IMG/VR virus record: IMGVR_UViG_3300035698_005399
Span: 19,495-83,494 of that record
DNA: 64,000 bases
Direction: 5' to 3' (one strand)
Source: a virus
Shown here: one piece after another, positions 31,301 through 60,296 of the stretch
Position numbering within the stretch: the stretch's first letter is position 1
Layout of the letters: every line of letters starts with the position of its first letter
Translations under genes and position numbers: made by a program
The notes under the pieces: model-generated
Databases searched by the model: none
The model's input: only the letters and a program-made list of their open reading frames with translations
Told to the model about the DNA's origin: nothing

Positions 31301-34300
31301 TACTATGCACAAATTCAAATAGAGGCTATTGAAAACTTTCTTACTATACGTAAATTAGGTAGAAGATTAGGTACCTTTCAAGGCTTAATGAATACAGACT
31401 CTGCAGGTATTGGTAAGAACATGATGTTTACTTTTACCAAGTATAATGATGCTCAACAAGCGGCCAAGCAATCTATTACTTTAGATGGAGAAAAAGGTAA
31501 TATTACGAATATGGATTCGTTAATTAATCCCAATGCAGAAACTCCTACTAATGAATTTTCTAGTATGTCTAACAGACATATATTAAAGACTGCCTATGAA
31601 CTGTTTGGAGTATTTTTTCCATATAATACACCAGGCTTTAGAGAAATGGTTCACCAAACTAGTACTGTGTCCAATGAAGACTTTGATAGTAGTTTGAACC
31701 AGAAGACTAATAATAGAAATAAATTATTTAGTCACTTTATGAGCTATACATATAGTGCAATGTTTGAAGATAATGAAAAATTATATTTTGATTCAAAAGA
31801 TAAAAATGCACTAGGACAGAATATTTTAAAGTTACAACAATCTGAAATCAAAGGAAATAAATTCTTACGAAAACTTAAGGTTAGGTTACAGAGAGGAATA
31901 ATTCCAACAACCATTACTATTAATGCTACTAAAGAAGATTCAAGTCAAGATCTTGACACTCACATTGCATTTACTGAGCTATTAAATTCTACACAAGAAA
32001 TTGATGGGGTTAGGGTCAGTGATATGGCTAGAGATCTTATTAGTTACGCATACTTAACTGGTGGACATCAACAAGCCACACAGTTTACAAAATATATTCC
32101 TGTATCATATTTAGTGAATACAGATTTTGCTGACAAATTGAACAAATTAGATTTCAATAACAAGGCCGCTTTATTAAATATGAATCCCAATATTCCAATA
32201 GAAGAACCCTTCTATAAAAGATTGGCCGGATTTACTATTCAATATGCTCAACATAATCCTTGGGTGCTTACACAAGATTCTACATTAGATCATAACAAAG
32301 AAGTTATCTACGATAAAACTATTGTAGATGAAGCTCCTAGTATTGTATCAAAAAGAGTAGAAGAACCCAGTGGTAAAGCCAAATGGGTAATCTTCATAAA
32401 GACTGATATTAATGGTGAACCCGCGCTTATGCGTACTGATAAACTTGGTGGTTCTCAAACAAGAGAATATAACAAGAATGAACCCACATCTAACAATACT
32501 AAATTTGATAAGACTAAGAATAAGAAAGTCCTTCAACCTAGTCCTAAAAAAGTTGATTCTACACAACCTAAATTGGTTGAACCAGCAAATAAAACTAATC
32601 CATTAAATATTACTGCAGGCAAGAATACTGATAATATATTAATTAGTATCTTATCACATCCTGATATTTCACCAGAACTAAAAGCATACGCACAAGAGCT
32701 TGCCGAACTGGGTATTCTTAATGACAATATTACATGGAAGATACTTGATAAAAGTAATCCGGCTAAAGGAAAGCATCACGGAAATGCTAAAGGTTCTACT
32801 ATATTTATTAATCCTGATAGACATGCTACTGCAGAAGACTTAGCAGAAACCATATTACATGAATTGACACATGCTATTACAGCATATCAGATTCACTCAT
32901 ATGAAAAGAATAAAAACTCTGTATCACCTAAGATGCAAGAGTCAATGGCTAAGCTGGAACAATTCATGGATAAAGCTCAAGAAATATTTAAAGAGCAAAA
33001 AGAAGAATTAAAGAAGAAACTAAGTACTGAGGAATTTAATAAATTAGAATATGCGTTAGGATTAAATGCGGCTAATAAAACACCTTTATCTGGGGTAAGA
33101 GAATTACTTGCTACAGCACGTACTAATAAGACTGTAAAAGACTTTCTTAATAATAATATATGGCAAGGTAAGAAATCTTTAATGGAAAGATTCTTAGAAC
33201 TAATTAGTAGAATCTGGAAAGACCTTGGTATTAAAAATGGTGGTGATGTGAGCAAAGGAGTATTGGCAGAGATGTATAATATTGTTCAAGAAAGTAATAA
33301 TGTAGCAAAAAAGCCAGATATTAATGATTCAGCATTAGGAATTAAAGATGATGCTTATTCTGATAAATTACCAGCTTTTACTGGAGATCAATGGAATGCT
33401 AAGAATGCTGCTGAGATTGAATTAGGCATGCGTCACAAAGATGGTGCACCTAAGAGATATTCTAATTACGAAAGAGCGTTAGCTAGGCTACAGGCATTAC
33501 GCAAGAAGCACCCACATAAGAAGATGAAGATGGCCAAGGTCATGGGTGAACCAGGAGATAATAGAGTCTATTATTCACCAGCTTTAGAAAATGAAATGTA
33601 TGATGATTATCTTCCAATGTTTGATTTGGATGAAGAATCAAGAGTATATGCAGACTTAGAATCTGTTATCAAGTCACAATTACAAGAGGTTAATAGAAGA
33701 ATTGGTGAATATAAGAACATTCTTAGGAATGAGCATATGTCTATAGCAGATAAGAGAGATGCTGTTGCTGCAATGGATAGGTTAAACACTAGAAGAAAAG
33801 ATTTAGCTGAGTCAGTTAAAGCTTCTAAAAAACTAATCTCACCAAGAGAATTAGGTCCATTTGGAGAAAAGCATTTACAAGAGATTGAAGAAATTGTTGA
33901 TAAGGATGATATGAATGCTTCTGAGATAGAATATGCAAATAGACTAATTCACTTATGGCAAGCTGCTGGCAAGAGAGATTTAAGACCAGATGAAGAACAT
34001 GTCTTCTTAACAAGAGAAGAATTAGAAAACGATATGTGGTTTGATGGTGATGAAACTTTTGCTGGATTCAATTATTATGCTAATAAAGCTGCTAAGTTTA
34101 AAAGTAAGCTGGCTAATAGAGAACGCGCTATTGTTGGAAATTTTGTAAGAAAGTATACTAGAACTGAATTATCAGATGATGATATTTTTGGTGCTATTAC
34201 TGATGCATACTTATTATCCTCAATGACATTAGATGTATCTAGACATAATGATCCAATGCTTAATGCAATCTTTATTGGAATTAAATCTAAGATAAAAGCT

Positions 34301-37114
34301 GCTAACTTAGAATATGACCGCAAAGTAAAAGAATTTACAAAACTTATCAAAGTTGCTTTACCTGAGTTAAAGAAATTATCAGAAGGAAATAACCCTTATG
34401 AAATTTTCCTACAAAAGGATAAAGATGGTGAACTTACTGGGGGATTAATTTTTCCATTTAGTCAAGACTTCTTTGATAAAAGATCTGAACTAAGACATAA
34501 AAGTCTTAAATCTGATAAAGGATATGAGCAATTTGTAGATTGGAAGAGATCTAATCTAATGATAATGGACCCAAGGATTCTATTTCCAGATGTTGAATTA
34601 TTCAAGCGTCAACAATATAGTGATGCTATGCGCGAAAAACATATTGCTGAACTAAAAGAACAAATGGGAGAAGAAGTATATGAAAAGTATTACAAAGAAT
34701 TAGAAAATAAAATTGGTCAATTCAAAGCTACCTACGAATATAAGAAGATGACTTCTACTGATGAAGAATTTGAAAATTGGAATAAAGAAAATTCACCATA
34801 CTGGTATGCTAGACTAATCAATGATAAGAATAAAATTACAGGTTCTGATGGTAAGAATATCTATTCATATGGATGGGAATATACTGTAGAGATTCCTAGA
34901 AAAACTAATAAAGTTGGTAAAGAAACAGGCTGGTATGATAAGAACTATGATAAAGTTCATCAGAATAAAGCTGTTAGTGAGTTGTATGAATTTATATCAA
35001 GTCAATTGACTGAAATGACCTCATATTTACCACCACACATTACCAAAGATATGCGTATTAATACCCTACCAGACTTAGAAGCAGCATGGTTAGAAGAAGT
35101 AAATGGTAGTGGAATGTCTGCAGCAGTAGGCATGGGTCGTATGATGGATGATTTAAAAAGAGTACTACGTTCTGAAGATAACTTAGAACAAATCAATCAA
35201 CCATTAGATCCATTAACAAAGCAACAAGAACGTTTTGTTCATGCTAGAAATCCAAGTATGTTGGAAAGTAAAGCTACTCAAAAATTAAATATTGCCAAAG
35301 CTAAATATCTAGCGGATACAGGAAAGAACATGCCATTCAAAGTGCAAGTTGCTACCAAGAAAAAGATTGTTGATGAATTAGTAAGAAGCTCAAGAAGATC
35401 CTTAGATTTGGAAAAAATCCTAAGAGGATATATTGCATCATCTACATTGTTTAAGCATAAATCATCTTTACAAGATGAAGTCAAGCTTGTTGAGAATGTA
35501 TTTATGAAACGAGTGGAATATGAAACAAATTCTGTTGGTGATAAAGTAACAGATGGCTATGGTAGAGATATCTTATCTCGTGCTAATCTAGCAAACTATA
35601 AGTCAATGCTACAATATCACTTGGATCATTTCTACAATCTTCCTGCTGAAAAAATTATGGGTAAGACCAATAAAAAACTATTGCTCACTGAAGAAAAAGC
35701 GGTTAAGCAAAGTATTGATGAAGCACAAACTGCATTAAATGAATCTTTAGCAGCAGGCTCTATTGAGCAAGAAGAATATGATGTACAATCTAAATACTTA
35801 GAAGAACAACTTAAAGGACTTGGTGGTGTAGTAACTGGTTCTGGTATGGTAAATCTAGTATTGCGTTATATCCACTTTAAAGGTATGGGTTGGAACGTAT
35901 TCTCTGCATTTTCTAACATGGGATTTGGTGTAATGGCCAACCTAGTAGAAGCAGCAGATGGTAGAACATTTACTACAAAAGAATTCTGGCAGGCAATGAA
36001 AATTGTTAAAGGTAGTATATTTAAAAATGCTACATTTAATCAAATGCAAACTGCAGATGCCATTAAGATTAGAAGCATCATGGATAAATATGACTTCTTA
36101 AAGACAAGCAAGAACGAAGTATATCGTTCACAACTGCATAATCAATTTGAAAAAGGTAGATTTTTATCTCCATATAACTTAACTGATAGATCAGAATACT
36201 TTAACCAAGCACCTGTTGTTGTAGCTATTATGTTACATCAAAAGATTAAGAATCTTAAAGGAGAAGAAGTTAGTCTATGGGAAGCTTTTGATAAGAATGG
36301 TGAATTCAATACTGCAGAATATGGAACAAATTGGCTGGTAGAAAAAAAGGGGGGAAGTCCCAGCCCTGAGATATCTTTCAGTATTCAGGTTGACCAAGCA
36401 ATTAAGAGAATTCATGGTAACTATGATCCAGAGAGTCCTTTGCAACTTAAAGAAACAGCTTTAGGTAGAGCATCTGCACAATTTAGAACATGGTTGTTTG
36501 AAGGTATGGCTGGTAGATTTGATACAAGAGGTGATAAAAATGGCATCTATGATGATGCTGCTGGAATTTATCTTAAAGGTCGTTATGTTTCATTATTTCA
36601 AGTAATGAGAGGTAATGAGGAACATAGCGGAATTAGTAATCTACTATTTACTACAAAACAATTATTTAGAAAACTTGCATCTGCTGCTCCATTTGTAGAT
36701 ATGCCTACAGAATTTGATAAAAGATTCAGTGAGGTAGATGCTGCTAACATGAGAGGCAACTTACAAGAGCTTGTTACATATGGTGTCTTATTAGGTCTTG
36801 CTGCGCTTCTAAAAGGTGCTGCTGGAGATGATGATGATATGGCAATTGCCAATTTATTACTCAATCAACTTAATAGATTACAAACGGATGTTGAAATGTA
36901 TATTAATCCTGCCACTTGGACTAAAACTGTATTAGATGATCCAATTCCTGGTACAAAAGTAATATCAGATTTTAGCAGATGGATGATTTCAGCAACTGAA
37001 TTTGTTCAAGGTAAAGATGGTTCTGGAGAAAAAATGTTTGATAATACACTCAAAATGACTCCGGGTCCTGGTCAAATTAAAAGATTATTTGACGCATCAG
37101 AACAAGTATATTAA
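22313..37114 (+). CDS. Giant virion-packaged DNA-dependent RNA polymerase (crAss-like) with zincin protease motif
   Basis: 4933 aa; FRIPTQG and catalytic GSDFDVDKL (nt ~30413-30439); KRL.A.IAPG; DAQ.F; HELTH zincin motif at 32858-32872. Confidence 0.85.
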   Translation: MRSVNAGGSKEPIKTGEVVNSGNTDNSIEFKKLRSVNPSSGTSFYAPDPKGQHQGLNLEDTYNQELVNKVIANNQSGYDKAFNAIVGGIASGGLTAVEDLSYMAQSAADLLSKGKLIDEWERNAVAEAMQKAKENLSEALPIYGNPMGFWNSTKSVLDSAIGFALPGALAIKGVSAIQKLPRALQLATRSKRAHAYLEMMRASGGVERITNALAAGTLQNHAEGVMMGMEVYENTLNNQLEANPNATKEQTDRYELAANDAADRFLVANRAMILSDAFSLHGIYQGKQMVRNLMNAPGWQNRFRQFGTSLVKPNADNLILQNAKEGVEEIYQGVQQKEQEYQALKSANLDISTYEAETFDRIWGFITEPTTLYEGLLGFVGGGAQRIITEAAAGKFSSSSRAQKAQAYEQQQAVIQASQEYLDGSLRDVRKVVNFVEQASGTESSVLGETVMDKKFIEIAVMNFEAGTTESLERQLDAIIENEEGTYEKEAISDARRHKELLGKLETQYIKFAKYENQLTLFDNRQAYDLTNRYADDVNKRKQIAFTTLQKEAALLVEGQTIAQDENGVIKNAPFILDPTSDTLIGVDDAAKEKYEKALNQLKDTEAYKEWKALSNQHDKLLGKRKLLNDAYKRDIDPTRQVDLYRVRKEKEEKIVKRAAEIVQEEIDAAQEAAVNESIEKKKADAPTKAKAKPTETTEEKTTPLSEQEEAEQSFLPVPLATNEDGTTQEGQDESTTESSLEAMSKELTSTGLMTAPELDRVDEARKILAKIKADIAEGIKNGLTVEQIVAQVLSKGYNFSSDQIDSLYDYIESRIERYNRLGARDSLDPIGDLRELHEAEALAETEEEKGEVEIAIAEINKPSVFAPVDAQQLFDHYIETIKGAITPWSTIEDIIEALKASDADFADRYERTDKETFHAKIDNLVTEFLNDAFEEEVDQNQRRLEDDRQKDEVTQEKEDAVEKIDEKTKESTVLNLEGAVIGLTYRASISSSGDVNAETIEDLEAFIFDNPWYNSLILDREHIKVGSKLTLRVIDHRRDGKKWTHKVKGVDVNQDVFKEEVPIEEYMDKVYIGAFDSNDEMIGLVYAPFQVSNFKGKQANRKIRQAVVENGDVEMEVDTITAGAIARMGKRAAFATNMPDSPILLNDGTIFTGDHPPKGFPLLFKGEDIKSYRGTTFTYIQTVDGPIPIPLNVNKARNIDGVIDILIKATESFFTQDTKSATEFRDTIKEKTNIDIFSEAGLRAFFNRYVYAADGGIMSDMAKRKSTYGGVSIWNREGVSIVEYGLGGEKKTNSFSAARMESNPENLGVAMKSLRNALAHTFLKVNKANLDGLDSKYTVLTLDKNGSIHDINEGKTYREFLAEKVFATNVATPKLSNGKRAHTISDVITLKPVGEQLKRAVENPTVEVNEKEEEAIENTAETRAKAILAKRKAKKANTDLDDYLPDFDSDKSDTKSSPDIITIDNDDLLIEHLTSTEQIQIIDYLASEIANLALQSDNLKAQDADISEVFRGFEKKLRDSVETQEWLAGIDDTFNLEAAKAKVKSLIARIDFLEKLVKNRLSVIGVVNENNTEVADTLIERNTYSEGFSLTLNPKDTAGAKLKYWLMRIKMEANGETVQSDFTETTGVEFDRYIPYDHAFEVLSEITAGHPADWDTMLEVIRINQGNLVWLPGLYNEIKDVKDEQLQNQFITAMTKRNTNMKKAAFRRNAENEFFFSVIDENSNSVTQATLEKWQINFLNNEKMFIHKEGKKTLDKDRLKELERIHDALTLRLIKSENVPLAEINELLGEFGISISKKIYDKLASKNKDGHLTLFRNGEKYTYNIAQVFQGFGPFSKKILIAPLAKDDSITDEFNLFSDNSLFSMARYVGQHDPTLSSNSFRVGDKSIYAYRLNNLITERIEELKDPRKALPLMKMAYNKHAGILEHMYKKEKGEFVFDENGLPIIKDESFVDLFQISDLSLEALKDLTSSLEGAGLIDLDEGSHEFAKVILYQAKQRRLKHSQKRVGTMLFPTFSDKTGADMVQTYLEDVVLNDDGTLSDQTAELIYQRVVRPEVNRIKANANRKEKYNIKSYNAGAALFYAFPELNDREAFPELYDKGILKPMDIVSKAAIRSAIKAHYQKLIDNKVADWKKHGLDDKMDKNYKKLLRESIAQKNITPEHMLRAAAADFEVNYTLNTADMFKLFHGDPALYFKISDKDVKNKQKNKKNLNAADYIQIVKDTFTNVGKRLAADIAPGQNIAYDFKSSFRMVLLPDQKRESTSLPYYARLKIKGLNDYKEIEGADAQEFTTFAEHLEILFKMGKLPTGVYKNALEKYTTWVKKEKAGIPLTKDDYISKKDLGLVMQPLKPVYTNNIATDGVYRRIYIKSSSIPLLPQLTNGLEIDKLRKAMERDGIDRAAFGTAFKVGAPLNPIEGMWNPDSTINEDTLSFKDSPAVLVLPRKGFRIQQEIPDKDEQVNPGSQERKLLFTDLLHIDGMKELKNEFNSAWDSLFELRKKVLYNELNDENNKLDFNKLQTMLKEEAVSRNWPINDRLALEVMNDQFTLPLWAMQSRGRIEALLNSIIDNKIRKIKFPGKSFVLATEEGFRQLQGTDLKNSGIKFNKYWKGELTHTSADKQTTDVIVPWKYTNDKGEKIPIPLTSEGLVDTDKLGDEDLGRMFGFRIPTQGLNSMANIRVVGYLPAEMGDVIIASRDFTKQMGSDFDVDKLYSYRKHYYTDNQGKIRTITEKTIAADLPKHMQNKLVEMKLINKIIDIHYQVMDNSDVEIQKRIAEPLSFQELKKQDAEGNEIGLAKKHDDLRNQNTDKSFFSPMSSNYQRGKLINGTAGKAGVGAFSLDSVFNAMIQGRNVTVTNFQKTMFGITTNGDLSSPFVLSDNGRTKGEVVSGYQSAAVDNENEQILDKLNINKHTFAFIRAMNQLGYEESHAAAILNQPIIRKLVARLGAAESPLSDDQVNDDSVLLDELTKEFEEIKINPDINLSVEEYEKAIPGDKSVPYYAQIQIEAIENFLTIRKLGRRLGTFQGLMNTDSAGIGKNMMFTFTKYNDAQQAAKQSITLDGEKGNITNMDSLINPNAETPTNEFSSMSNRHILKTAYELFGVFFPYNTPGFREMVHQTSTVSNEDFDSSLNQKTNNRNKLFSHFMSYTYSAMFEDNEKLYFDSKDKNALGQNILKLQQSEIKGNKFLRKLKVRLQRGIIPTTITINATKEDSSQDLDTHIAFTELLNSTQEIDGVRVSDMARDLISYAYLTGGHQQATQFTKYIPVSYLVNTDFADKLNKLDFNNKAALLNMNPNIPIEEPFYKRLAGFTIQYAQHNPWVLTQDSTLDHNKEVIYDKTIVDEAPSIVSKRVEEPSGKAKWVIFIKTDINGEPALMRTDKLGGSQTREYNKNEPTSNNTKFDKTKNKKVLQPSPKKVDSTQPKLVEPANKTNPLNITAGKNTDNILISILSHPDISPELKAYAQELAELGILNDNITWKILDKSNPAKGKHHGNAKGSTIFINPDRHATAEDLAETILHELTHAITAYQIHSYEKNKNSVSPKMQESMAKLEQFMDKAQEIFKEQKEELKKKLSTEEFNKLEYALGLNAANKTPLSGVRELLATARTNKTVKDFLNNNIWQGKKSLMERFLELISRIWKDLGIKNGGDVSKGVLAEMYNIVQESNNVAKKPDINDSALGIKDDAYSDKLPAFTGDQWNAKNAAEIELGMRHKDGAPKRYSNYERALARLQALRKKHPHKKMKMAKVMGEPGDNRVYYSPALENEMYDDYLPMFDLDEESRVYADLESVIKSQLQEVNRRIGEYKNILRNEHMSIADKRDAVAAMDRLNTRRKDLAESVKASKKLISPRELGPFGEKHLQEIEEIVDKDDMNASEIEYANRLIHLWQAAGKRDLRPDEEHVFLTREELENDMWFDGDETFAGFNYYANKAAKFKSKLANRERAIVGNFVRKYTRTELSDDDIFGAITDAYLLSSMTLDVSRHNDPMLNAIFIGIKSKIKAANLEYDRKVKEFTKLIKVALPELKKLSEGNNPYEIFLQKDKDGELTGGLIFPFSQDFFDKRSELRHKSLKSDKGYEQFVDWKRSNLMIMDPRILFPDVELFKRQQYSDAMREKHIAELKEQMGEEVYEKYYKELENKIGQFKATYEYKKMTSTDEEFENWNKENSPYWYARLINDKNKITGSDGKNIYSYGWEYTVEIPRKTNKVGKETGWYDKNYDKVHQNKAVSELYEFISSQLTEMTSYLPPHITKDMRINTLPDLEAAWLEEVNGSGMSAAVGMGRMMDDLKRVLRSEDNLEQINQPLDPLTKQQERFVHARNPSMLESKATQKLNIAKAKYLADTGKNMPFKVQVATKKKIVDELVRSSRRSLDLEKILRGYIASSTLFKHKSSLQDEVKLVENVFMKRVEYETNSVGDKVTDGYGRDILSRANLANYKSMLQYHLDHFYNLPAEKIMGKTNKKLLLTEEKAVKQSIDEAQTALNESLAAGSIEQEEYDVQSKYLEEQLKGLGGVVTGSGMVNLVLRYIHFKGMGWNVFSAFSNMGFGVMANLVEAADGRTFTTKEFWQAMKIVKGSIFKNATFNQMQTADAIKIRSIMDKYDFLKTSKNEVYRSQLHNQFEKGRFLSPYNLTDRSEYFNQAPVVVAIMLHQKIKNLKGEEVSLWEAFDKNGEFNTAEYGTNWLVEKKGGSPSPEISFSIQVDQAIKRIHGNYDPESPLQLKETALGRASAQFRTWLFEGMAGRFDTRGDKNGIYDDAAGIYLKGRYVSLFQVMRGNEEHSGISNLLFTTKQLFRKLASAAPFVDMPTEFDKRFSEVDAANMRGNLQELVTYGVLLGLAALLKGAAGDDDDMAIANLLLNQLNRLQTDVEMYINPATWTKTVLDDPIPGTKVISDFSRWMISATEFVQGKDGSGEKMFDNTLKMTPGPGQIKRLFDASEQVY

Positions 37115-42069: not shown

Positions 42070-42424
42070 TTTGTAACAATTCTACAAAGTCTTTTGCTTT
42101 CATAACAATTAACTCTTCTTCTTCTTTTTTCCCTTTCCTGTGTGCGATTATTACAGGATACTCCGATTCGGGACTATTTGGAGGTAGCATTGTACTAATT
42201 CTTGTTTCAATTTCATGTATTAGCTTAGGATAATTAATCCCGCTTGCTACATGTTTACATTGAAACAAGTAAGGTATAAATGCTAGGTCAACGCCGCAGT
42301 CGTCTAATAATCTGCTGGCATGTCTGGTTGTTTTGCAATGTTCGTGTCCTAATTGTCTGAATATTTTTGCCCATTTACGTTCATATCTATGACCTACTTC
42401 TCTATTTCTTTTTCCATTTATCAT
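42047..42424 (-). CDS. Holliday-junction resolvase-like PD-(D/E)XK nuclease
   Basis: GKRNR..G..YER...K.FR.LG, D..GVDL and FQCK motifs. Confidence 0.7.
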   Translation of the reverse strand: MINGKRNREVGHRYERKWAKIFRQLGHEHCKTTRHASRLLDDCGVDLAFIPYLFQCKHVASGINYPKLIHEIETRISTMLPPNSPESEYPVIIAHRKGKKEEEELIVMKAKDFVELLQNAKNKNI

Positions 42425-43152
42425 AAATATGGAGTAGTTTTAACTAACTCCTTTATTGTTTTTACTTTATTTACGATTTCGTTCAATCCTAAATTTGCAA
42501 TTACATTTTCATCATTGTGCCAAAAATTATTAAGTTCTGTTAATGGTAAGCATCTAGTACGAATGCCTAAATTTTCAACATTGTTCAACAATTCTCTAAA
42601 TTTATTCTTATAGGTACTACTTTTTGTAGTATTATAAAACTCATCATTATACCAATATTCAAATGCTTCTACATCTATAGGCATATAATTATCAATAACA
42701 ATCCTATTTATAATATACTTTCGAAATTCCGGCTTAACCATTAAATTAGAATGAATAATCTTTTTATCTAAAATAGAACTACTATTCAAAATTTGAATTC
42801 CTGCATTTATCAATAAACTATAATTTATCCCATTAGATGAAAACTCATTACTCAAACTAAATCGCTGTTTTATTGGAACTATACCGTGCATCTCCTTTAT
42901 TTCAAATGTATTTGCATTTACATATTGATGTGTTATATAATTTTCAAGATTTGTTAAATGATCATATAGATCCACATCAATATTATTAGTAAAAGCAAGC
43001 AACTTAATACCCCGCTCAACACTACCACTTTCATAGAATTCATGATGCAAACCATCGTTAAGAATAATAGTTTTAAACATACTTCCTATTTGATTACTAA
43101 TAGTGTTAATATCAATATTTTCTTCAAATATATCATACATATTATTATGCAC
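42421..43152 (-). CDS. Hypothetical protein downstream of E1 (start uncertain; frame open to 43356)
   Basis: At least 243 aa, Asn/Ile-rich; no stop for a further 68 codons upstream of the GTG. Confidence 0.55.
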   Translation of the reverse strand: MHNNMYDIFEENIDINTISNQIGSMFKTIILNDGLHHEFYESGSVERGIKLLAFTNNIDVDLYDHLTNLENYITHQYVNANTFEIKEMHGIVPIKQRFSLSNEFSSNGINYSLLINAGIQILNSSSILDKKIIHSNLMVKPEFRKYIINRIVIDNYMPIDVEAFEYWYNDEFYNTTKSSTYKNKFRELLNNVENLGIRTRCLPLTELNNFWHNDENVIANLGLNEIVNKVKTIKELVKTTPYL

Positions 43153-43339: not shown

Positions 43340-44089
43340 TTAATTTTTCGTCTCCGTTAATACACACGGTTCGCAACTATTGTTCCCATCTATAATTATA
43401 TTTTCTTGTGTTGTAAAAGTAAACATTGGTAATTCATAGCAAGTTTTAACTGGAAAACTAAACATTTCAACTTGAAGATTCTGATTTGCGATAATATTCA
43501 AATATAACTGTAACATATAAGCGCCAATAATGGCTCCATTATGAGATGTTGCCTTATAAGAACATGGTGCATCTTGTACCTCAGAATCATCAAAGAATTC
43601 AGCTTCATATTGTTCGATCTTATCTGGTGTAACACAATAAACAATACCTGTTTCTGCACTCATTCTACCATCTATAAACAAACAATTTTCACCACCATTA
43701 CTTTTAGTATGTTTTTTCCATGCATCAAACATTAAACGTCTTGCTTTCATGTTATCAAATGCTGAAAATACTACATCTGTTACAGTTGATTCTTCTACAA
43801 ATTCACCAACAGGAGTAATTTTCATTTCATCACACATTTTATCACAAACATCCATGACAGAATCTGATTTTAATGAACCAATATGATCTGTAAAATAAGC
43901 TTGTCCTCCAATATTATGCGTCTCAATGGTATCCATTTCATATAAATAAATGTTATACCCTACTCTACTTAAAAATATGGCAAGCCAGCTACCAATACCC
44001 CCGGCACCACCCAGAGTGACATGATTGTCACCTGAGTTGTACCAGTTAGCATCGGTAAATCTAGCATGCATTTCGTTTTTTTCACTCAT
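43340..44089 (-). CDS. E1-like ThiF/MoeB-family adenylyltransferase
   Basis: GGAGGIGSW nucleotide-binding loop, D.IE.HN..GQ, K, FDN..AR, FIDGRM, and candidate catalytic Cys in APCSYK. Confidence 0.9.
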   Translation of the reverse strand: MSEKNEMHARFTDANWYNSGDNHVTLGGAGGIGSWLAIFLSRVGYNIYLYEMDTIETHNIGGQAYFTDHIGSLKSDSVMDVCDKMCDEMKITPVGEFVEESTVTDVVFSAFDNMKARRLMFDAWKKHTKSNGGENCLFIDGRMSAETGIVYCVTPDKIEQYEAEFFDDSEVQDAPCSYKATSHNGAIIGAYMLQLYLNIIANQNLQVEMFSFPVKTCYELPMFTFTTQENIIIDGNNSCEPCVLTETKN

Positions 44090-45276
44090 ATTGTCGATGT
44101 TGATAGTTTATATTTTGCGATTAAATCATCAAAAAATAATACTAAATCTTCTAATTTTTCTTTAGTAGCATTATCATAAATATTAATAGTAAGAAGCTGA
44201 CTTCTACAATTTGTAGCAAGAGCCAAATAATCAGCATCTTGATCAGCATCTACTGGGGAAATATTAAAATAATCTTGCGCTTCGTTTTCGAAACTATCTG
44301 CTAAAGCTTGAAAATAAGTATCAGTATTTTTAAGTGTAATTTTTCCAACTTTTAATACAGCATCATAAAGCAATAAAGCATGATATCCTGTTGCTGATAA
44401 TGTAATAAATTTACCTAAAAACTTTTTAACATCATAAGAAATATTTATTTGCGCCGCCAACGCCGGTGATTTTTCTTTTTGTGTTTTCCCTTCTTCTGAT
44501 GTGATTTTCCCTGCTGGGAAACCTGGTGTGTATCGAAATGTACCTTGTGTTCCTCCTCCAGCACCTCCATAGCTAGGATACTTCGGATAAGTCTTAACTA
44601 CTGGGATTAAATCTTGGAATCTTTCCTCCAATTTATCCCCAATATTAAAATTTGGTACTGGTTTTTCAATATCACAATTAACATAATAAATCAAATCTTT
44701 TTCTGGAACCTCTTTTGTAGTTGACCCAAAGATAGAAGTTGTTACTACACTAGTAGCTTCTTGTTTACCAGTAACACATAGTTTTGCAACAGGAGTATTA
44801 TTATAATTTACAATAAGCGATACATAATATTTGTGATTTGGAGCATTAATTCGAAGCTCATCCATATCAGTTCCGCTAAAGAAAGCTTCCATGTTATGAT
44901 GTGTATGAATATGACCCATAATCCAACGATCATCATCTGCTGTCTCCATTGGATCAGATTGAGGATACTCATCCCACATTTCGCTTAAATCTTTTGGATT
45001 ATATTCGTATTCAGTATAAGCAGCAGTTCCAATATTCATAAGATGAATAGCTTGTGCTTCTAATACCAAAGTTTTTGGGTCTAAGATGTCTCCTTCTTTA
45101 AAAGACCACAATAAAATACCAGACCACTCCAATCCTTTAATTCTACTTTGTGAATGCAACCATTTGACTTGATCCCATAGCTTAGGTGTAATAATTAATT
45201 TACACTTATCTACAATTGTTTGTTCTACAAACTCTTTCTTAACGGGTATTACCGCTACTGGTGTTTTTGTTGTCAT
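44086..45276 (-). CDS. JAB/MPN+ metalloprotease (isopeptidase-like) with C-terminal helical extension
   Basis: EWSGIL plus GHIHTHH.M..FFSGTD gives the complete E...HxH...S..D JAMM motif. Confidence 0.85.
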   Translation of the reverse strand: MTTKTPVAVIPVKKEFVEQTIVDKCKLIITPKLWDQVKWLHSQSRIKGLEWSGILLWSFKEGDILDPKTLVLEAQAIHLMNIGTAAYTEYEYNPKDLSEMWDEYPQSDPMETADDDRWIMGHIHTHHNMEAFFSGTDMDELRINAPNHKYYVSLIVNYNNTPVAKLCVTGKQEATSVVTTSIFGSTTKEVPEKDLIYYVNCDIEKPVPNFNIGDKLEERFQDLIPVVKTYPKYPSYGGAGGGTQGTFRYTPGFPAGKITSEEGKTQKEKSPALAAQINISYDVKKFLGKFITLSATGYHALLLYDAVLKVGKITLKNTDTYFQALADSFENEAQDYFNISPVDADQDADYLALATNCRSQLLTINIYDNATKEKLEDLVLFFDDLIAKYKLSTSTI

Positions 45277-46279
45277 GTTTTAAATAAATATAATTTATGT
45301 ATTCTTCAAATAAATCTACAAATGATGGATTTAATTCGTAAATGATTTCTTGTTGTTCTTTAGTATCTTCTTTAAAAATACAAGGTTGAATATTTTTTCC
45401 TTTAAAATTTACCGATGCGGTTTCATTAATAAAATGATTTGCTTGTGCTTCTATATCTGCATGATTATATGAATTATTAGAACTACTGTTAAATTTTCGG
45501 TATGTATTGTTTTGTTTAATTAATAATACGTCATTCGATAGATCTTCATAATTTTCTTTACTAAGCTTCCAAGAAATAATTTTAAATCTATTCTTGGTTG
45601 CTATATAATTAATCTTAAATTTATCAATATGAGTCATTATATATGGAATACTATTGTGATAATAACCAGACAACGTGGTAATATTTTCTTTAAAATGATT
45701 ATAAGAAAAAGGAGCACCATATGATATCTTATTATTTAAACTTAAAATATTTCTAAGTTTGAAATAGGGCATTCCTTCAAGACTTTCCCATGATACATAA
45801 GAATTAACGGTATATAAAAAACTATAAAATGCGTTAATAAAATCATCATTGTTATCAATAGCTTTACCATTTTCCATGGAGTGTTCGTTAAACAATACTG
45901 CAATTGGACCAGAGCCCAAACAAAACTCATTATTAAATTCACGAATTATAGTTCCGGGATGCAAATGAGAATGACTATATCCAGAAGCACATTCTTCTAA
46001 TGTAAAAGTTGTTCTTGTTCCACTAAAATTATTATTTTTGCCAAACCAATATCTATAAGGATTAAGTAATATTACTGTACGTACATATAAGTCTCGTATA
46101 ATATGACTTTCTCCTTGAGAATTTGTAATGTTAATTTCAGGAAAGTGAATAATTAAATAATAGTCTTTATTATTTTTCTTATTATTTATTGGAGAAAGTT
46201 CATATCGTTCCGATGTATAAATTTCATCCAAAATTCGAACAGCATTTTCTAAAGTTTGATTTGTTGCTACATTAATCAT
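45239..46279 (-). CDS. Prokaryotic E2-like (UBC-fold) protein
   Basis: Beta-rich N-half ending in GYSHSHL....NEFCLGSGP, analogous to the E2 HPN...xCL active-site signature; lies between Ubl and JAB/E1 genes. Confidence 0.6.
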   Translation of the reverse strand: MINVATNQTLENAVRILDEIYTSERYELSPINNKKNNKDYYLIIHFPEINITNSQGESHIIRDLYVRTVILLNPYRYWFGKNNNFSGTRTTFTLEECASGYSHSHLHPGTIIREFNNEFCLGSGPIAVLFNEHSMENGKAIDNNDDFINAFYSFLYTVNSYVSWESLEGMPYFKLRNILSLNNKISYGAPFSYNHFKENITTLSGYYHNSIPYIMTHIDKFKINYIATKNRFKIISWKLSKENYEDLSNDVLLIKQNNTYRKFNSSSNNSYNHADIEAQANHFINETASVNFKGKNIQPCIFKEDTKEQQEIIYELNPSFVDLFEEYINYIYLKHDNKNTSSGNTR

Positions 46280-46671
46280 AATTTAAATTTTTGAAATTCA
46301 GTTAATAAATCGGCTTCTTCTTTGCTTAAATTATGGGTTGGTGGAACTTGTGCTTTCGCCGCAGGTTTCGGAGGTTCTACATATATTAATTTAGGCAATG
46401 GTTGTTGTTCTTGTGTTGATTCATTTGGGGAATAAGCATTTATTAATGTCTTGTATTTATCAATATTTGATTGCAGACTAGCCGCATCTTGAACGCATCT
46501 ATTATAATTATCAACATAATTATTATATTTGTCTTTTAGGTTTGATGAAGTTTTTTGTCTGACACTATTAATAACAGCAATCATATATTTTTTTTGCTTA
46601 TCAACCTGTGTTTCGCCAATAGTCTTTAAATCTTCATCCAACCTTGTGTATAAAGCATTTAAATTTTGCAT
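46276..46671 (-). CDS. Hypothetical coiled-coil protein in the Ubl operon
   Basis: 131 aa, helical with a Pro-rich linker; stop/start-coupled to Ubl and E2. Confidence 0.6.
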   Translation of the reverse strand: MQNLNALYTRLDEDLKTIGETQVDKQKKYMIAVINSVRQKTSSNLKDKYNNYVDNYNRCVQDAASLQSNIDKYKTLINAYSPNESTQEQQPLPKLIYVEPPKPAAKAQVPPTHNLSKEEADLLTEFQKFKL

Positions 46672-46901
46672 TATTCTCCACTTTTTACTTTAGCGGGCAC
46701 CAAGAAAATAATCAAATCTCCATCTGGAAGTTGTGATTCGTTTGTTTCATATGAATTTTGATTTGCGCGGTTGATACCTTTCATACCATCTTCATAACCA
46801 GTAATAGATCCAATTAGGTTTCCCCAAGTCAAACCGTTCGACATACTAGTTAGCTCTTGTAGAGCATTTGTCTTACTATTAAAAAGTTTAATCGTTCTCA
46901 T
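46671..46901 (-). CDS. Ubiquitin-like (beta-grasp) small protein
   Basis: 76 aa; strand-strand-helix (TWGNL) pattern, LPDGDLIIFLV final strand, C-terminal KVKSG-E; first gene of the E2-JAB-E1 operon. Confidence 0.65.
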   Translation of the reverse strand: MRTIKLFNSKTNALQELTSMSNGLTWGNLIGSITGYEDGMKGINRANQNSYETNESQLPDGDLIIFLVPAKVKSGE

Positions 46902-57556: not shown

Positions 57557-57850
57557 TTATGTTTGAATTTTAAGTGTTTTTTGTTTGCATTTTGGAAACA
57601 AGGGCCTTGCAATTCTGACAATATCAACTAAACAAGAATGTTTGATATTTTCACCAATTGTCATACAACCTAATCGTATTGCACCAGATCCAGTAAAAAG
57701 TTCATGTAAACGTTCAATTTCTTTCTTGGCTCCTTTTTTAGTAAATGATTTAGCAGGTGTATATATAAAATGGCGATCTTCAAATCCACATTCGTCTGGT
57801 AAATATACTGTTGCTTCTAAATGATAATTTTTTTTCTCTTTCTTTTTCAT
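57557..57850 (-). CDS. Hypothetical protein
   Basis: 97 aa, basic, TAATG-coupled to polB. Confidence 0.5.
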   Translation of the reverse strand: MKKKEKKNYHLEATVYLPDECGFEDRHFIYTPAKSFTKKGAKKEIERLHELFTGSGAIRLGCMTIGENIKHSCLVDIVRIARPLFPKCKQKTLKIQT

Positions 57851-58914
57851 TAAAATAAAGTTTTTTGAAAATTGTTATTTAGCTTTAAGATAATGTCATT
57901 TGCACGTTTAGTATAATAACCATAATTAATATTATAGTCGTCTGAACCAAAAAAATCATTAAATAATGTAATCTTGAATCCTGCTACCAAACTTACTCTT
58001 TTATCTTGAGCTTTATATTTTTTATATAGATACCCTCCAGTATTACTAACGTAATATCTATTGTTTTTTTGGAGATTGTCTATTTTATAATTACCATCAT
58101 TAAAATAATGATGTTCTGTTTGAAATTGTGGTCCTGTTTTTTGAGCCATACAAAAATCATAAATATTATCATGATTCTTAAAGAACTCTAATATATCAGC
58201 ACCATTAATTAAATGCTCGTATATAGCTTTTGCTATAACTGGAGCATCATACCCACCACTTAAATTTTCACTTGTTGAAAAGTCACCTTTAATTTTAACA
58301 TTATCATATTCGTCTACAATAAGATAATTATTAACATCTTTAATGTACATTTTCTTGTACTCAACAAATTCTAAAATAAATCCGGTCTCTTCTTGCCACT
58401 CTTTAGAAATCTGATAATACGTATCAGTTAATGAACGATCAAATAGACAAGTTATACCATCAGTATTACTATAAACACATTTGATACCAGCTAGACTTAG
58501 CTTTTCAACAAGCATAAGTAAGAATAGTTGACCATTAAGTGTCACACTATACATTGCTTGTTTGTCTAATAAATAACTATAATCATTACCTAGCTTACCA
58601 TATATACTGTTGATGGCTATCTTTAAAGCTTCTGCTTTAAGCGCCATCTTGGGGTCTTCCTTCTTGAGAACTTTAGCTTTAAGCCGCTGCTGCATAATAT
58701 CATTAACAATATGATAAAAATCTTTACCTAAATGTTCTGGATAAATGCCCAATTCTACAAGAATAGCTGGATAGAACGAACTTGCATCCGCATCCAGTAT
58801 AATTTCATTTGCTTTAGGAATAATAATTCCAGGTTTGCTTTCACTATGTAGACCTCCCTTTGCCATAGTATGCATCAAACCATCTATCGCTATTCTTCGT
58901 TTAAAGTCAAGCAT
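57850..58914 (-). CDS. Family B DNA polymerase, polymerase part (-1 frame relative to the exonuclease part)
   Basis: GGLHS, motif A D.SSFYP, motif B KIAINSIYGK and motif C NTDG. Confidence 0.9.
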   Translation of the reverse strand: MLDFKRRIAIDGLMHTMAKGGLHSESKPGIIIPKANEIILDADASSFYPAILVELGIYPEHLGKDFYHIVNDIMQQRLKAKVLKKEDPKMALKAEALKIAINSIYGKLGNDYSYLLDKQAMYSVTLNGQLFLLMLVEKLSLAGIKCVYSNTDGITCLFDRSLTDTYYQISKEWQEETGFILEFVEYKKMYIKDVNNYLIVDEYDNVKIKGDFSTSENLSGGYDAPVIAKAIYEHLINGADILEFFKNHDNIYDFCMAQKTGPQFQTEHHYFNDGNYKIDNLQKNNRYYVSNTGGYLYKKYKAQDKRVSLVAGFKITLFNDFFGSDDYNINYGYYTKRANDIILKLNNNFQKTLF

Positions 58915-59669
58915 TGTATTTCAATTGTTTTTAAATCATCGAGTAGATGTTTTAATTGATCTGTTTGAAATACGATTTTGTCTGATATACAATCTTTAAA
59001 GTGTACTGTTTGTCTTTTAGTGCTAAGATATCTAAACCTTCTTGGTTCCAATCCTGTGGCGTCAGCATAAAGCTTTTCCATTAATTTATCTCCAACACCG
59101 GCTCTACTTTTGTTAATTACATTTACATTGTAATTTGCACCAACGTCTATTCTAAGGTTTATTTCTGGTAAAATTCTAAAAAATAATTTCTTAGTAATTA
59201 ATACATCGTTTAAATTATATTGTAGGATTTCCTCAATTTGGTTTTCAGAAATGATACTTTCGTGATGTAAAGGAAAGTCTTGAATTTTAGGCCATTGCAT
59301 ATTAATGGCGCATTGTTTCAAACTAATACCTTTTGCGTCGTGGTGTAATATCTTATATAAATCTACAGTCAAATATCCAAGTTTAGCTTGTTGCTTCTTT
59401 TCACTTTCGATAATTTTCTGTGTTGTTTTATATAATTGTTGATTAGACTGCCCTTGGTTAAATGCTTTTAATAAAACATCATCAAATTCTAGATTATTAT
59501 AACCTACAAGTGATGTAATTGTTTCATAAAATGAATTGTAATTTGCTATACTTTCACTATATTCATCATTCAATTTGTATATTGTAAAGCTATCTTCAGA
59601 ATGAAGGTCTACAAATATAATTGAAAAAAAATTGGGGAATACTTCAATATCATAAGCATAAGAACTCAT
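58890..59669 (-). CDS. Family B DNA polymerase, N-terminal 3'-5' exonuclease part
   Basis: ExoI YDIEV, ExoII GYNN..FD, SLK and ExoIII YNLNDV; ATG at 59669. Confidence 0.85.
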   Translation of the reverse strand: MSSYAYDIEVFPNFFSIIFVDLHSEDSFTIYKLNDEYSESIANYNSFYETITSLVGYNNLEFDDVLLKAFNQGQSNQQLYKTTQKIIESEKKQQAKLGYLTVDLYKILHHDAKGISLKQCAINMQWPKIQDFPLHHESIISENQIEEILQYNLNDVLITKKLFFRILPEINLRIDVGANYNVNVINKSRAGVGDKLMEKLYADATGLEPRRFRYLSTKRQTVHFKDCISDKIVFQTDQLKHLLDDLKTIEIQCLTLNEE

Positions 59670-59672
59670 AAT

Positions 59673-59706
59673 AAAAAAGGGGAGTAACAAATTAATGTCA
59701 CTCCCC
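59673..59706 (-). terminator. Intrinsic terminator
   Basis: Minus strand reads GGGGAGTGACA-TTAATT-TGTTACTCCCC followed by TTTTTT. Confidence 0.8.
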
Positions 59707-59712
59707 AATTAT

Positions 59713-60017: not shown

Positions 60018-60296
60018 TTAAAAGGGGTGTTTTGCAACCCCATATTTTGGAATATAATTCCTAATGTTGCGATTTTTATCGCGTCTTCTTCTTAATTGGA
60101 ATCTCTCTGTTGGAGGAGCATTGAATTCTTGTGAATCATTCAGCTTCATACTACTACGATATTCACGCATTAAATCATCTGGTGATAATATTTTTGCGTT
60201 CATATAATGCTTTGCTTGTTTAATCTGCGCTTCATTGATTAATGCATCTTCCGCCATCCTCAAGAGATCTTCCAAACTATCCTTGGTTTTACTCAT
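60018..60296 (-). CDS. Hypothetical protein
   Basis: 92 aa with a basic C-terminus. Confidence 0.55.
   Translation of the reverse strand: MSKTKDSLEDLLRMAEDALINEAQIKQAKHYMNAKILSPDDLMREYRSSMKLNDSQEFNAPPTERFQLRRRRDKNRNIRNYIPKYGVAKHPF

Follow-up and report, generated by a model that had tools for sequence, protein, structure and literature searches.

A candidate ubiquitin-like protein-conjugation cassette in the replication module of a crAss-like phage

The crAss-like phage considered here, from a salt lake (IMG/VR record IMGVR_UViG_3300035698_005399), carries five coupled minus-strand genes at 43340–46901 of the window, the 64,000-nucleotide stretch analysed (positions 19,495 to 83,494 of the record). 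They encode a 76-aa ubiquitin-like protein (Ubl; 46671–46901), a 131-aa protein, X, in a different reading frame (46276–46671), a 346-aa E2-like protein (45239–46279), a 396-aa JAB/JAMM metallopeptidase (44086–45276) and a 249-aa E1-like ThiF-family adenylyltransferase (43340–44089), with successive overlaps of 1, 4, 38 and 4 nt. The Ubl gene starts 8 nt past the end of a UDG gene, and a further minus-strand ORF of 243 aa (42421–43152) lies 187 nt past the E1 gene. A first-pass annotation had described these five ORFs from the letters alone; all were recovered at these coordinates, the E2, JAB, E1 and Ubl motifs that it quoted are present, as a check of their codons confirmed, and the replication module in which it placed them is borne out by the genes around them, which serve nucleotide and DNA metabolism (RNR, UDG, primase, thymidylate synthase).

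As that annotation proposed, the 76-aa ORF is modelled as a ubiquitin-like protein: its AF2 model (pLDDT 84.2) has a bb-a-bbb beta-grasp followed by a flexible tail, and its best Foldseek matches are ubiquitin and ubiquitin-like proteins (TM 0.62–0.72, prob 1.00), while no match was found in Pfam, ThiS included. Its C-terminus reads K71-V-K73-S-G75-E76, with the single residue Glu76 capping it before the stop. Gly75 (codon 46679–46677), inside the motif K[IV][KR]SG, is the sole invariant column of the Ubl across 92 relatives; the next residue is Ala in 59 and Ser in 10 of them. Most relatives encode the Ubl as the N-terminal part of a ~200-aa protein, in which a tail of ~126 aa (median) follows the Gly; this extension matches SAP in two of the 92 members, and its C-terminal end, ...EIDxMFxF-like, is conserved. 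Stand-alone Ubls that stop 1–3 residues past the Gly occur in several lineages, and in three lineages the gene is split exactly at the Gly: in this window (KSG-E, then X), in L013, which has the same layout as here (KAG-K, a 78-aa Ubl, then an overlapping 127-aa ORF), and in cr106_1 (KSG-KF), where an HNH gene comes before a 130-aa ORF with a match to the extension profile (E 1.3e-8). These splits argue for processing by the JAB peptidase. X occupies the position at which the Ubl precursors of relatives have their C-terminal extension; it matches no family and its Atlas model has a mean pLDDT of 0.41. A profile built from 81 extensions fails to recover X (E=5), so that its equivalence to the extension is positional only.

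The E2-like protein (phrog_15310, E 7.5e-16; 3295 cluster representatives in its family) appears in its AF2 model (pLDDT 79.6, pTM 0.70) as two domains: a UBC-like N-terminal one (~1–180), which runs from a helix through a four-strand meander and the Cys loop to helices, and a second, alpha/beta one (~200–340). The motif residues Y101, H103-S-H105 and C120-L-G122 lie in the first domain, and Y101, H103, S104, H105, C120, G122, E165, S166, G169 and P171 are invariant among 144 relatives. By VIA, 44 solved chains match the model at Z≥5 (top Z 6.3), and all 50 matches listed are E2, UEV or E2-variant proteins, with which a wide structural search agrees; Z-scores of this size are moderate, and may reflect a common arrangement only. 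At the sequence level the protein matched nothing in Pfam, no E2 HMM of NCBIfam or PADLOC and no PDB sequence; its nearest named clusters in the Atlas carry Prok-E2_D, which we treat as a lead only. The UBC fold suggested by the first-pass annotation is thus found in the model, if only at Z 5–6.3, and with its invariant His...Cys the 346-aa protein is probably the transfer enzyme (E2).

The other two enzymes have recognizable sequence families. The JAB protein scores 27 bits against Pfam Prok-JAB (cut-off 25). To its catalytic domain, at ~25–170, a C-terminal part of ~200 aa without assignment is joined, and its JAMM motif E50, H124-x-H126, S134 and D137 (E...HxHx7SxxD) is invariant in 13 homologues. 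The E1 matches Pfam ThiF (E 6.2e-17, 62 bits, cut-off 28.1) and phrog_15670 (E 1e-47), and consists of a single adenylation domain with the motifs G27-x-G-G-I-G, D112-N...R117 and C176 in APCSYK (Cys176 codon 43564–43562). This Cys, within C[ST]xK.T, does not vary among 12 homologues, in which D-N...R and the glycines that bind the nucleotide are conserved too. The closest solved chains, TcdA (E 4e-6) and MoeB (E 3e-4), align over the Rossmann part only. The 243-aa downstream ORF matches no family; in relatives the gene directly past E1 is fast-evolving and forms at least three groups that look unrelated, to one of which the 243-aa ORF has a marginal profile match (E 0.018, 10 bits). This ORF may be the counterpart of that gene, and its membership in the cassette is uncertain.

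The order Ubl–E2–JAB–E1 is kept in all 11 of the independent IMG/VR loci, as well as in crAss001, cr111_1, cr85_1, cr128_1, cr106_1, bajarodcaudo virus 1 and Flavobacterium phage FpV4, a set that includes four Steigviridae besides crAss001, so that the synteny in relatives anticipated by the first-pass annotation was indeed seen. Because this order recurs across 11/11 loci and cultured phages, and because the ThiF and Prok-JAB matches exceed their cut-offs, we regard the cassette as beyond chance. In these relatives it always adjoins the primase and UDG genes, outside the variable islands. Three genomes of Suoliviridae and one of Steigviridae lack the cassette, though close relatives have it, and it is therefore an accessory module; the E2-like and E1 genes are jointly absent from all four.

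Among known systems the closest is BilABCD, the Type I/II Bil or bacterial ISG15-like anti-phage ubiquitination operons (doi 10.1101/2023.09.26.559546, PMC11601596). Both have the gene order Ubl–E2–JAB–E1, a single beta-grasp Ubl with extra residues past the conserved Gly, and separate E1 and E2 proteins of which the E2 bears a Cys; the Bil JAB cleaves at Gly97|Ala98 (doi 10.1101/2023.09.26.559546), the same Gly|Ala context that prevails among the phage Ubls. In contrast to Bil, which lies in bacterial defence islands, the cassette is phage-encoded among replication genes, its E1 is a single ThiF domain whereas BilD is multi-domain (IAD-AAD-CYS), the His residues of its E2 precede the Cys (H103, H105...C120, compared with C138-E144-H146-H151 in Type II BilB), this E2 has an extra C-terminal domain, and the Ubl tails are far longer (median 126 aa vs up to 9). 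No match to Bil was found at the sequence level, and the structural Z to the Bil chain 8tyz_C is only 4.5. The Bub systems (6E/DUF6527; PMC11601596) likewise combine a Ubl, an E2-like protein, a JAB and an E1, with a JAB that cleaves a pre-protein made up of the Ubl and a fusion partner (PMC11601596), and the E2-like model aligns with chain D of the Citrobacter Bub complex 9eav (Z 4.6, 108 residues, 15% identity). However, Bub E1 and E2 lack a catalytic Cys and form oxyesters (Ser, Tyr), whereas the phage proteins keep theirs invariantly; Bub also has Ubl-E2 and JAB-E1 fusions and the DUF6527 protease BubE, and a Pfam search of the phage cassette gave no DUF6527 match.

Type II CBASS Cap2/Cap3 and PRTRC operons resemble the cassette in that mobile or conflict-related DNA encodes proteins of the E1, E2 and JAB types, but Cap2 unites E2 and E1 in one protein and uses a CD-NTase as the tag, without a Ubl. 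The matches of the phage E1 to the PADLOC ‘E1-E2’ models (weak, best E 2.8e-8) and to PRTRC_ThiF (E 5e-7, 29 bits against a cut-off of 144.75) cover the Rossmann part only. The cassette is not a member of Bil, CBASS or PRTRC. Its likeness to the Bil and CBASS parts stops at the superfamily level. Among phages, the lambda/T1 tail-assembly proteins TAPI (Ubl) and TAPK (JAB) offer a parallel: TAPI is a Ubl encoded by the phage, its beta-grasp domain ends in a conserved Gly, and it is fused to a C-terminal domain from which release by the neighbouring JAB peptidase is predicted (PMC1779556). Unlike the present cassette, with its E1 and E2-like protein in a replication module, TAPI and TAPK lack E1 and E2, belong to a tail-assembly module, and pair the JAB with NlpC/P60.

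We consider it fairly probable that the cassette is a phage-encoded ubiquitin-like protein-conjugation cascade. The analysis shows the folds, as models, the catalytic motifs with their invariance, the Gly that bounds the Ubl in all relatives and a gene order that is kept; the chemical steps and the target are inferred. The Ubl would be made with one surplus residue here (KVKSG-E) and as a precursor with a ~126-aa tail in most relatives; the JAB would cleave behind Gly75 and expose it; the small ThiF-type E1 would adenylate the Gly75 carboxylate and probably load the Ubl on its invariant Cys176 as a thioester; and the UBC-fold E2-like protein would then receive the Ubl on its invariant Cys120 and pass it on to a lysine of one or more phage or host proteins. 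Target choice may fall to the second domain of the E2, the C-terminal part of the JAB or neighbouring small genes, and the JAB may also remove the tag.

An unlikely alternative is that the Ubl is activated without tagging proteins, the E1 making a thiocarboxylate or other activated acyl carrier for a small-molecule, nucleotide, DNA or tRNA modification needed in phage replication, with the Cys-bearing E2-like protein a relay or scaffold and the JAB only maturing the carrier. Minimal single-domain E1s of the ThiF/MoeB/TcdA type usually serve sulfur-carrier or non-protein chemistry, and the phage E1 resembles those of ThiS–ThiF, MoaD–MoeB and TcdA in size, single-domain architecture and a Cys past the adenylation core; these enzymes are its best sequence matches, with ThiF equivalogs at the top in NCBIfam. 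The location among RNR, UDG, primase and thymidylate synthase genes would suit such a role, and some Ubls (Urm1, TtuB, SAMPs) have both sulfur-carrier-type and tagging roles. Yet the E1 scores far under every ThiF and MoeB equivalog cut-off (e.g. 61 vs 159 bits), and the absence of thiamine and Moco genes reported in the first-pass annotation extends to the 83.5-kb record, in which ThiS, ThiG, MoaE, PP-loop ATPase and rhodanese were not found, the last two being missing also from five complete cassette-bearing genomes, although host enzymes could serve. Moreover, a UBC-like protein with an invariant His...Cys, which sulfur-carrier pathways do not need, is always present, as is the JAB.

A role in counter-defence against host Ubl immunity, such as Bil and type II CBASS, seems similarly doubtful: the JAB would strip host tags off phage proteins, and the Ubl, E1 and E2 would serve as decoys or competitors or else disable host defence proteins by tagging them. 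Bil systems do tag phage proteins and JAB enzymes undo such tags (PMC11601596; doi 10.1101/2023.09.26.559546), and both the patchy accessory distribution, typical of host-interaction genes, and the fast-evolving genes that adjoin the cassette are consistent with this. However, tag stripping needs the eraser alone, yet invariant catalytic residues are retained in all four parts, the order of which is fixed; the likeness to defence components is superfamily-level at most; and the cassette stays beside primase and UDG rather than in variable islands. This reading also overlaps with the conjugation cascade, because a working cascade would still be required. It is quite improbable, finally, that there is no cascade and that the Ubl, rather than being conjugated, is a module for folding or docking within a larger replication-associated protein, comparable to Ubl-domain adaptor proteins, with the JAB merely processing it and the ThiF-like and UBC-like proteins having unrelated or structural jobs. 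The ~200-aa fusions with their occasional SAP matches and conserved end, together with the moderate support for the E2 fold, point in this direction; against it stand the stand-alone Ubls ending just past the Gly, the Gly as the only invariant Ubl column, the invariant catalytic residues of E1, E2-like protein and JAB, and the co-occurrence of the four genes, of which E2-like and E1 are also absent together in all four negative genomes.

Because the proposed conjugation module lies in the replication block and is accessory, we expect it to act early or midway through infection, on replication, host-takeover or defence-related proteins and not on virion parts. We found no published account of this phage cassette in the literature, and earlier studies of such kits concern cells and bacterial anti-phage defence only; here the kit is borne by a phage, in which it would tag proteins.

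The five minus-strand open reading frames that the first-pass annotation placed at 43340–46901 were all found there, and every motif quoted for them is present and confirmed at codon level. They encode a ubiquitin-like protein (Ubl; 46671–46901, 76 aa), a second small protein (X131; 46276–46671, 131 aa), an E2-like protein (45239–46279, 346 aa), a JAB protease (44086–45276, 396 aa) and an E1 (43340–44089, 249 aa), with overlaps of 1, 4, 38 and 4 nt between consecutive genes and 8 nt between the UDG gene and the start of the Ubl gene. As claimed, the cassette is embedded in the replication module: it is surrounded by a crAss-type block that encodes RNR, a RusA-like resolvase, UDG, an Mre11-like exonuclease, primase, Sak4, thymidylate synthase and DNA polymerase, as well as DnaB-like and other helicases. 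A promoter and terminator scan returned sites no more numerous than in shuffled sequence. Two salt-lake metagenome runs contain over 70% of the words sampled from the cassette, and none of the runs listed for it is of RNA. The linear 83,494-base IMG/VR virus record, of which the window is bases 19495–83494, has a CheckV completeness estimate of only 45%, pointing to a genome considerably longer than 100 kb.

On the opposite strand to the cassette, a single plus-strand ORF of 4933 aa (22313–37114) matches in size class the giant virion RNA polymerase proteins that crAss-like phages encode. The DNA polymerase (57850–59708, minus strand) is encoded by two ORFs (58890–59708, 272 aa; 57850–58914, 354 aa) that overlap by 25 nt and match the N- and C-terminal halves of phrog_1252, an arrangement that may reflect gene splitting, a frameshift or an error in the sequencing. 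A nicotinamide phosphoribosyltransferase gene (60289–61734, minus strand; phrog_448, E = 1e-118) gives the phage an NAD+ salvage gene beside its replication block.

The assignment of the last gene of the cassette as a ThiF/E1 enzyme is upheld by a single ThiF domain (residues 21–203) that scores 62 bits against Pfam ThiF (PF00899; gathering cut-off 28.1) and by a match to phrog_15670 (E = 1e-47). Across 12 E1 homologues (the window, nine IMG/VR loci, crAss001 and FpV4) the nucleotide-binding glycines and the D-N...R residues (D112-N...R117) are kept, and the Cys of the C[ST]xK.T motif, Cys176 in the window's E1, is invariant; these homologues are 219–249 aa long, with crAss001 gp76, extended at its N terminus, as the one exception. 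Among solved chains the closest are TcdA and MoeB, matched in the Rossmann part only. In two IMG/VR loci the E1 gene occurs as pieces of 141 and 95 aa about 540 nt apart (L007, 9067–10316; L008, 6991–8240), with no long ORF in that frame in the gap, and could there carry an intron or an insertion or be a broken gene. The JAB protein passes the Pfam Prok-JAB cut-off narrowly (PF14464; 27 bits against 25), and the intact motif reported for it, JAMM residues E50, H124, H126, S134 and D137 (E...HxHx7SxxD), is invariant in 13 JAB homologues; against solved chains it gave no significant match, with an Rpn11-like chain at E = 0.72.

The 76-aa protein had been called beta-grasp-like, and its AF2 model, built with a 92-sequence alignment (pLDDT 84.2), has the bb-a-bbb order of a beta-grasp fold followed by a flexible tail; the best Foldseek matches are of the ubiquitin type, namely ubiquitin, ubiquitin variants and a Bacteroides fragilis ubiquitin-like protein (TM 0.62–0.72, rmsd 2.0–3.9 Å, probability 1.00). 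Pfam, NCBIfam and PADLOC gave no match to the Ubl, a word-based search for relatives of near length returned only itself, and tblastn against phage records returned none. Relatives were gathered by reading the neighbourhoods of E2-like genes and then by profile search: in all 11 IMG/VR loci the gene directly upstream of the E2-like gene starts with about 75 residues alignable to the Ubl, and a profile of these neighbourhood-derived sequences retrieved 1548 longer proteins. A Pfam scan of 92 Ubl-family members found no family, except SAP in the extensions of two (best E = 3e-4). The sole invariant column of the 92-sequence alignment is Gly75, within K[IV][KR]SG, and stand-alone forms stop 1–3 residues beyond this domain-end Gly while fused forms run on. 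Four and two residues before the Gly stand basic residues that mirror R72 and R74 of ubiquitin.

These sequences suggest that in relatives the Ubl is usually made as a precursor with a tail: the part beyond the Gly has a median length of 126 aa across the 92 sequences, and directly after the Gly 59 of them have Ala, 10 Ser, six Val and five Cys. In three lineages the split of the gene falls exactly at the Gly. The window has KSG-E, a stop, and X131 in a different frame; relative locus L013 has KAG-K, a stop, and an overlapping 127-aa ORF; and cr106_1 (Steigviridae) has KSG-KF, a stop, an HNH endonuclease gene and a 130-aa ORF. This last ORF matches a profile of the tails (hmmsearch, E = 1.3e-8) and, judging from that similarity, is the former C-terminal extension of the Ubl precursor. 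A further relative, L010, has a 77-aa Ubl that ends KSG-TSI and no tail gene. Together, the gene splits and the tail-less form indicate a functional boundary at the Gly, in keeping with cleavage there by the adjoining JAB.

The HNH gene of cr106_1 (L017, NC_055871.1, 1872–3075) lies exactly between the 92-aa Ubl and the 130-aa ORF, and a homing endonuclease appears to have split this precursor gene at the Gly boundary. Homology of X131 to the precursor tail was considered and given up: the tail profile does not detect X131 (E = 5), the Atlas offered no usable match to it, and its link to the tail is positional only. At the start of the tail, crAss001 gp79 and its homologues in cr85_1, cr128_1 and cr111_1 (L001, L016–L019) carry a SAP/HeH-like helix motif, and gp79-type members close with an acidic-hydrophobic motif that is conserved (...SPYSDDEIDxMFxF); to the eye, and as pure speculation, the latter looks like a docking peptide, for instance of the clamp- or SSB-type tail kind.

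The 346-aa protein is a more complicated case: the UBC-like fold of its model and an invariant His...Cys pair agree with the E2-like label it had been given, but no E2 sequence model matches it. The AF2 model (pLDDT 79.6, pTM 0.70) runs from a helix through a four-strand antiparallel meander and a loop with the His motif and Cys120 to further helices, which is the UBC order, and adds a second alpha/beta domain at about residues 200–340. Foldseek returned nothing at E ≤ 1e-3, with mostly E2, UEV and RWD chains at the top of its list; an unbiased VIA-align comparison with 48,161 representative chains again brought up mainly chains of the E2, UEV and RWD types, at Z 4.2–6.3, including 9eav chain D from a Bub complex (Z 4.6), 8tyz_C from Bil (Z 4.5) and the ASFV E2 I215L. 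When Foldseek's best 1000 chains were re-aligned, 44 reached Z ≥ 5 (maximum 6.3, about 120–143 residues aligned), and all 50 matches listed are E2, UEV or E2-variant proteins, at Z values that, being below 8, are moderate. We therefore hold with fair confidence that the modelled fold is UBC-like. C120, H103 and H105 sit in the stretch of the model expected for the Cys loop and upstream His motif, a placement by stretch rather than by superposed residues, and a putative catalytic role of Cys120 is likely.

The E2-like family comprises 3295 representatives of 50%-identity clusters (3045 at E ≤ 1e-10), and Y101, H103, S104, H105, C120, G122, E165, S166, G169 and P171 are invariant in 144 of its sequences. 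Pfam matched none of 14 family members at E ≤ 1 (UQ_con and Prok-E2_A–E included), the 144-sequence profile found no sequence match among PDB chains, and neither Pfam, NCBIfam nor PADLOC recognized the window's protein; the nearest named Atlas clusters, mostly viral, carry Prok-E2_D (score 0.87), which is a lead only. One E2 pattern, run over genome contigs of bacteria and archaea, brought up no relative, which is weak evidence given how narrow that pattern is. An N-terminal stretch of 60–100 residues common to most relatives is absent from the window's protein. Its second domain (45239–45680) gave weak matches (Z 4.3–4.7) to winged-helix repressors of the ArsR/SmtB type, and might serve in DNA binding or target choice.

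The expectation that the genes would be syntenic in relatives is borne out: the order Ubl-E2-JAB-E1 is kept in all 11 IMG/VR loci, which were fetched via the E2-like gene with a five-sequence alignment, and likewise in named phages. It is found in crAss001 (gp79–gp76), in cr111_1, cr106_1, cr85_1 and cr128_1 (all Steigviridae/Asinivirinae), in bajarodcaudo virus 1 and in Flavobacterium phage FpV4 (gp53–gp50), and tblastn located the E2-like gene in 69 phage records and the E1 in 82. Neither the E2 profile nor Pfam ThiF had a match anywhere in the whole records of Suoliviridae cr118_1, cr4_1 and cr130_1 and of Steigviridae cr108_1, while the positive control crAss001 was detected by both (1e-126 and 1e-17, respectively). 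With many carriers but four genomes that lack both E2-like and ThiF genes, the cassette is widespread but accessory. Its layout also varies: compared with the gut phages, the window has the Ubl alone with a one-residue cap and X131 as a separate gene, and the UDG gene lies upstream of the cassette in the window, as in FpV4, but downstream in Steigviridae. In public annotation the E1 goes under 'thiamine biosynthesis protein' and in a single case under 'E1 enzyme family protein'; the JAB is labelled 'metalloprotease', and the remaining cassette genes are 'hypothetical'.

A gene of 210–380 aa stands right after E1 in every relative (L001, L014, L016, L018, L019 and L003–L013). These genes form at least three groups without detectable mutual similarity (the crAss001 gp75 group, L003/L009 and L007/L010/L013), and the position either houses a rapidly evolving fifth component or is a slot in which variable genes settle. 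The window's own downstream 243-aa ORF matches one of the groups marginally (E = 0.018).

The best-supported reading of the cassette, and one that we consider probable, is a Ubl conjugation cascade, whose chemical steps we infer throughout. JAB would expose Gly75 of the Ubl; E1 would adenylate Gly75 and probably form a thioester at Cys176; the Ubl would then pass to Cys120 of the E2-like protein and be attached to a lysine of some target, a covalent linkage predicted to run through the Gly; and JAB may take the tag off again. A role in which the Ubl is activated as a sulfur carrier, rather than as a protein tag, loses weight when the genomes are searched for its partners. The claim that the window holds no thiamine or Moco genes agrees with searches of the whole record, a fragment at 45% completeness by CheckV, in which there is no ThiS, ThiG or MoaE, nor any PP-loop ATPase or rhodanese, and the latter two are likewise absent from five complete cassette-bearing genomes. 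Host enzymes could nevertheless stand in for these missing partners, and the E1 does belong to the minimal ThiF type. Counter-defence against host Ubl immunity fits alongside the conjugation cascade, as it specifies a target and does not propose a separate mechanism, and agrees with the patchy distribution of the cassette.

Among known systems, the phage cassette would by analogy work most like BilABCD, with which it has in common the gene order Ubl-E2-JAB-E1, a single beta-grasp Ubl, predicted processing after a conserved Gly, and separate E1 and E2 proteins. The Bil JAB, BilC, cuts its own Ubl between Gly97 and Ala98 (doi 10.1101/2023.09.26.559546), and Ala is the commonest residue after the Gly in the phage relatives (59 of 92). 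However, BilD is a multi-domain E1 (IAD-AAD-CYS) with its Cys in a mobile inserted domain, whereas the 249-aa phage E1 has one ThiF domain, and type II BilB has the motif order C138-E144-H146-H151 (CEHH), whereas the His motif of the phage E2-like protein precedes the Cys, as in canonical HPN...C E2s. PADLOC, in a release that may lack Bil models, matched the E1 weakly to CBASS 'E1-E2' and returned nothing for the remaining four proteins. Since the E1 architecture and the order of the E2 motif are different, and no match exists at sequence level, we do not regard the phage cassette as a member of Bil.

Nor is it Bub, which has Ser/Tyr oxyester active sites and a DUF6527 protease (PMC11601596): the phage E1 and E2-like proteins keep invariant Cys residues, and Pfam found no DUF6527 among 10 local ORFs. 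PRTRC cassettes and type II CBASS Cap2/Cap3 were set aside on scores far under cut-off (PRTRC_ThiF 29.2 bits against 144.75 in NCBIfam; PRTRC_A 16 bits against 101.8, in the JAB motif only; PADLOC E1-E2 matches ≤ 30.7 bits, in the Rossmann part only) and on gene structure, as Cap2/Cap3 has an E2-E1 fusion that acts on a CD-NTase while the phage E1 and E2-like proteins are separate genes. The lambda TAPI/TAPK pair belongs to a tail module and comes without E1 or E2 (PMC1779556), and is therefore not the same system either. A ThiS-ThiF/MoaD-MoeB pair was also rejected, the best equivalog score being 61.4 bits against 159.

To our knowledge, prokaryotic Ubl tagging has so far been characterized as cellular, in sulfur carriers, archaeal SAMPs, and the anti-phage Bil, Bub and type II CBASS systems. 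In the phage cassette it is the virus itself that encodes the tag, a trimming and perhaps tag-removing protease, an activator and a probable transfer enzyme. A search for literature linking crAss-like phages or Crassvirales to Ubl, E1, E2 or JAB, whose coverage excludes subscription journals, found none; an earlier description in print is possible. We see evenly balanced odds for the broader proposal that many crAss-like phages, including the cultured gut phages crAss001 and DAC15, run their own ubiquitination-like pathway, in which a JAB-cut Ubl precursor, a minimal E1 and a diverged E2 tag proteins of the host or the phage and so steer replication or disarm the host. The question is directly testable, since cultured, tractable phage–host pairs have the E2-like gene: Bacteroides with crAss001 or DAC15, and Flavobacterium psychrophilum with FpV4.

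Such a pathway, if real, would be the first protein-tagging cascade known in complete form from a bacterial virus, and a lineage apart from Bil, Bub and CBASS. A working cascade would provide a phage-side counterpart of Ubl-based immunity in hosts, a new and minimal E1/E2 pair with which to study the evolution of ubiquitination, and a function for four genes now called 'hypothetical' or mis-annotated as 'thiamine biosynthesis', in phages that are among the most abundant gut virus groups and with an E2-like family as large as the 3295 representatives counted here.
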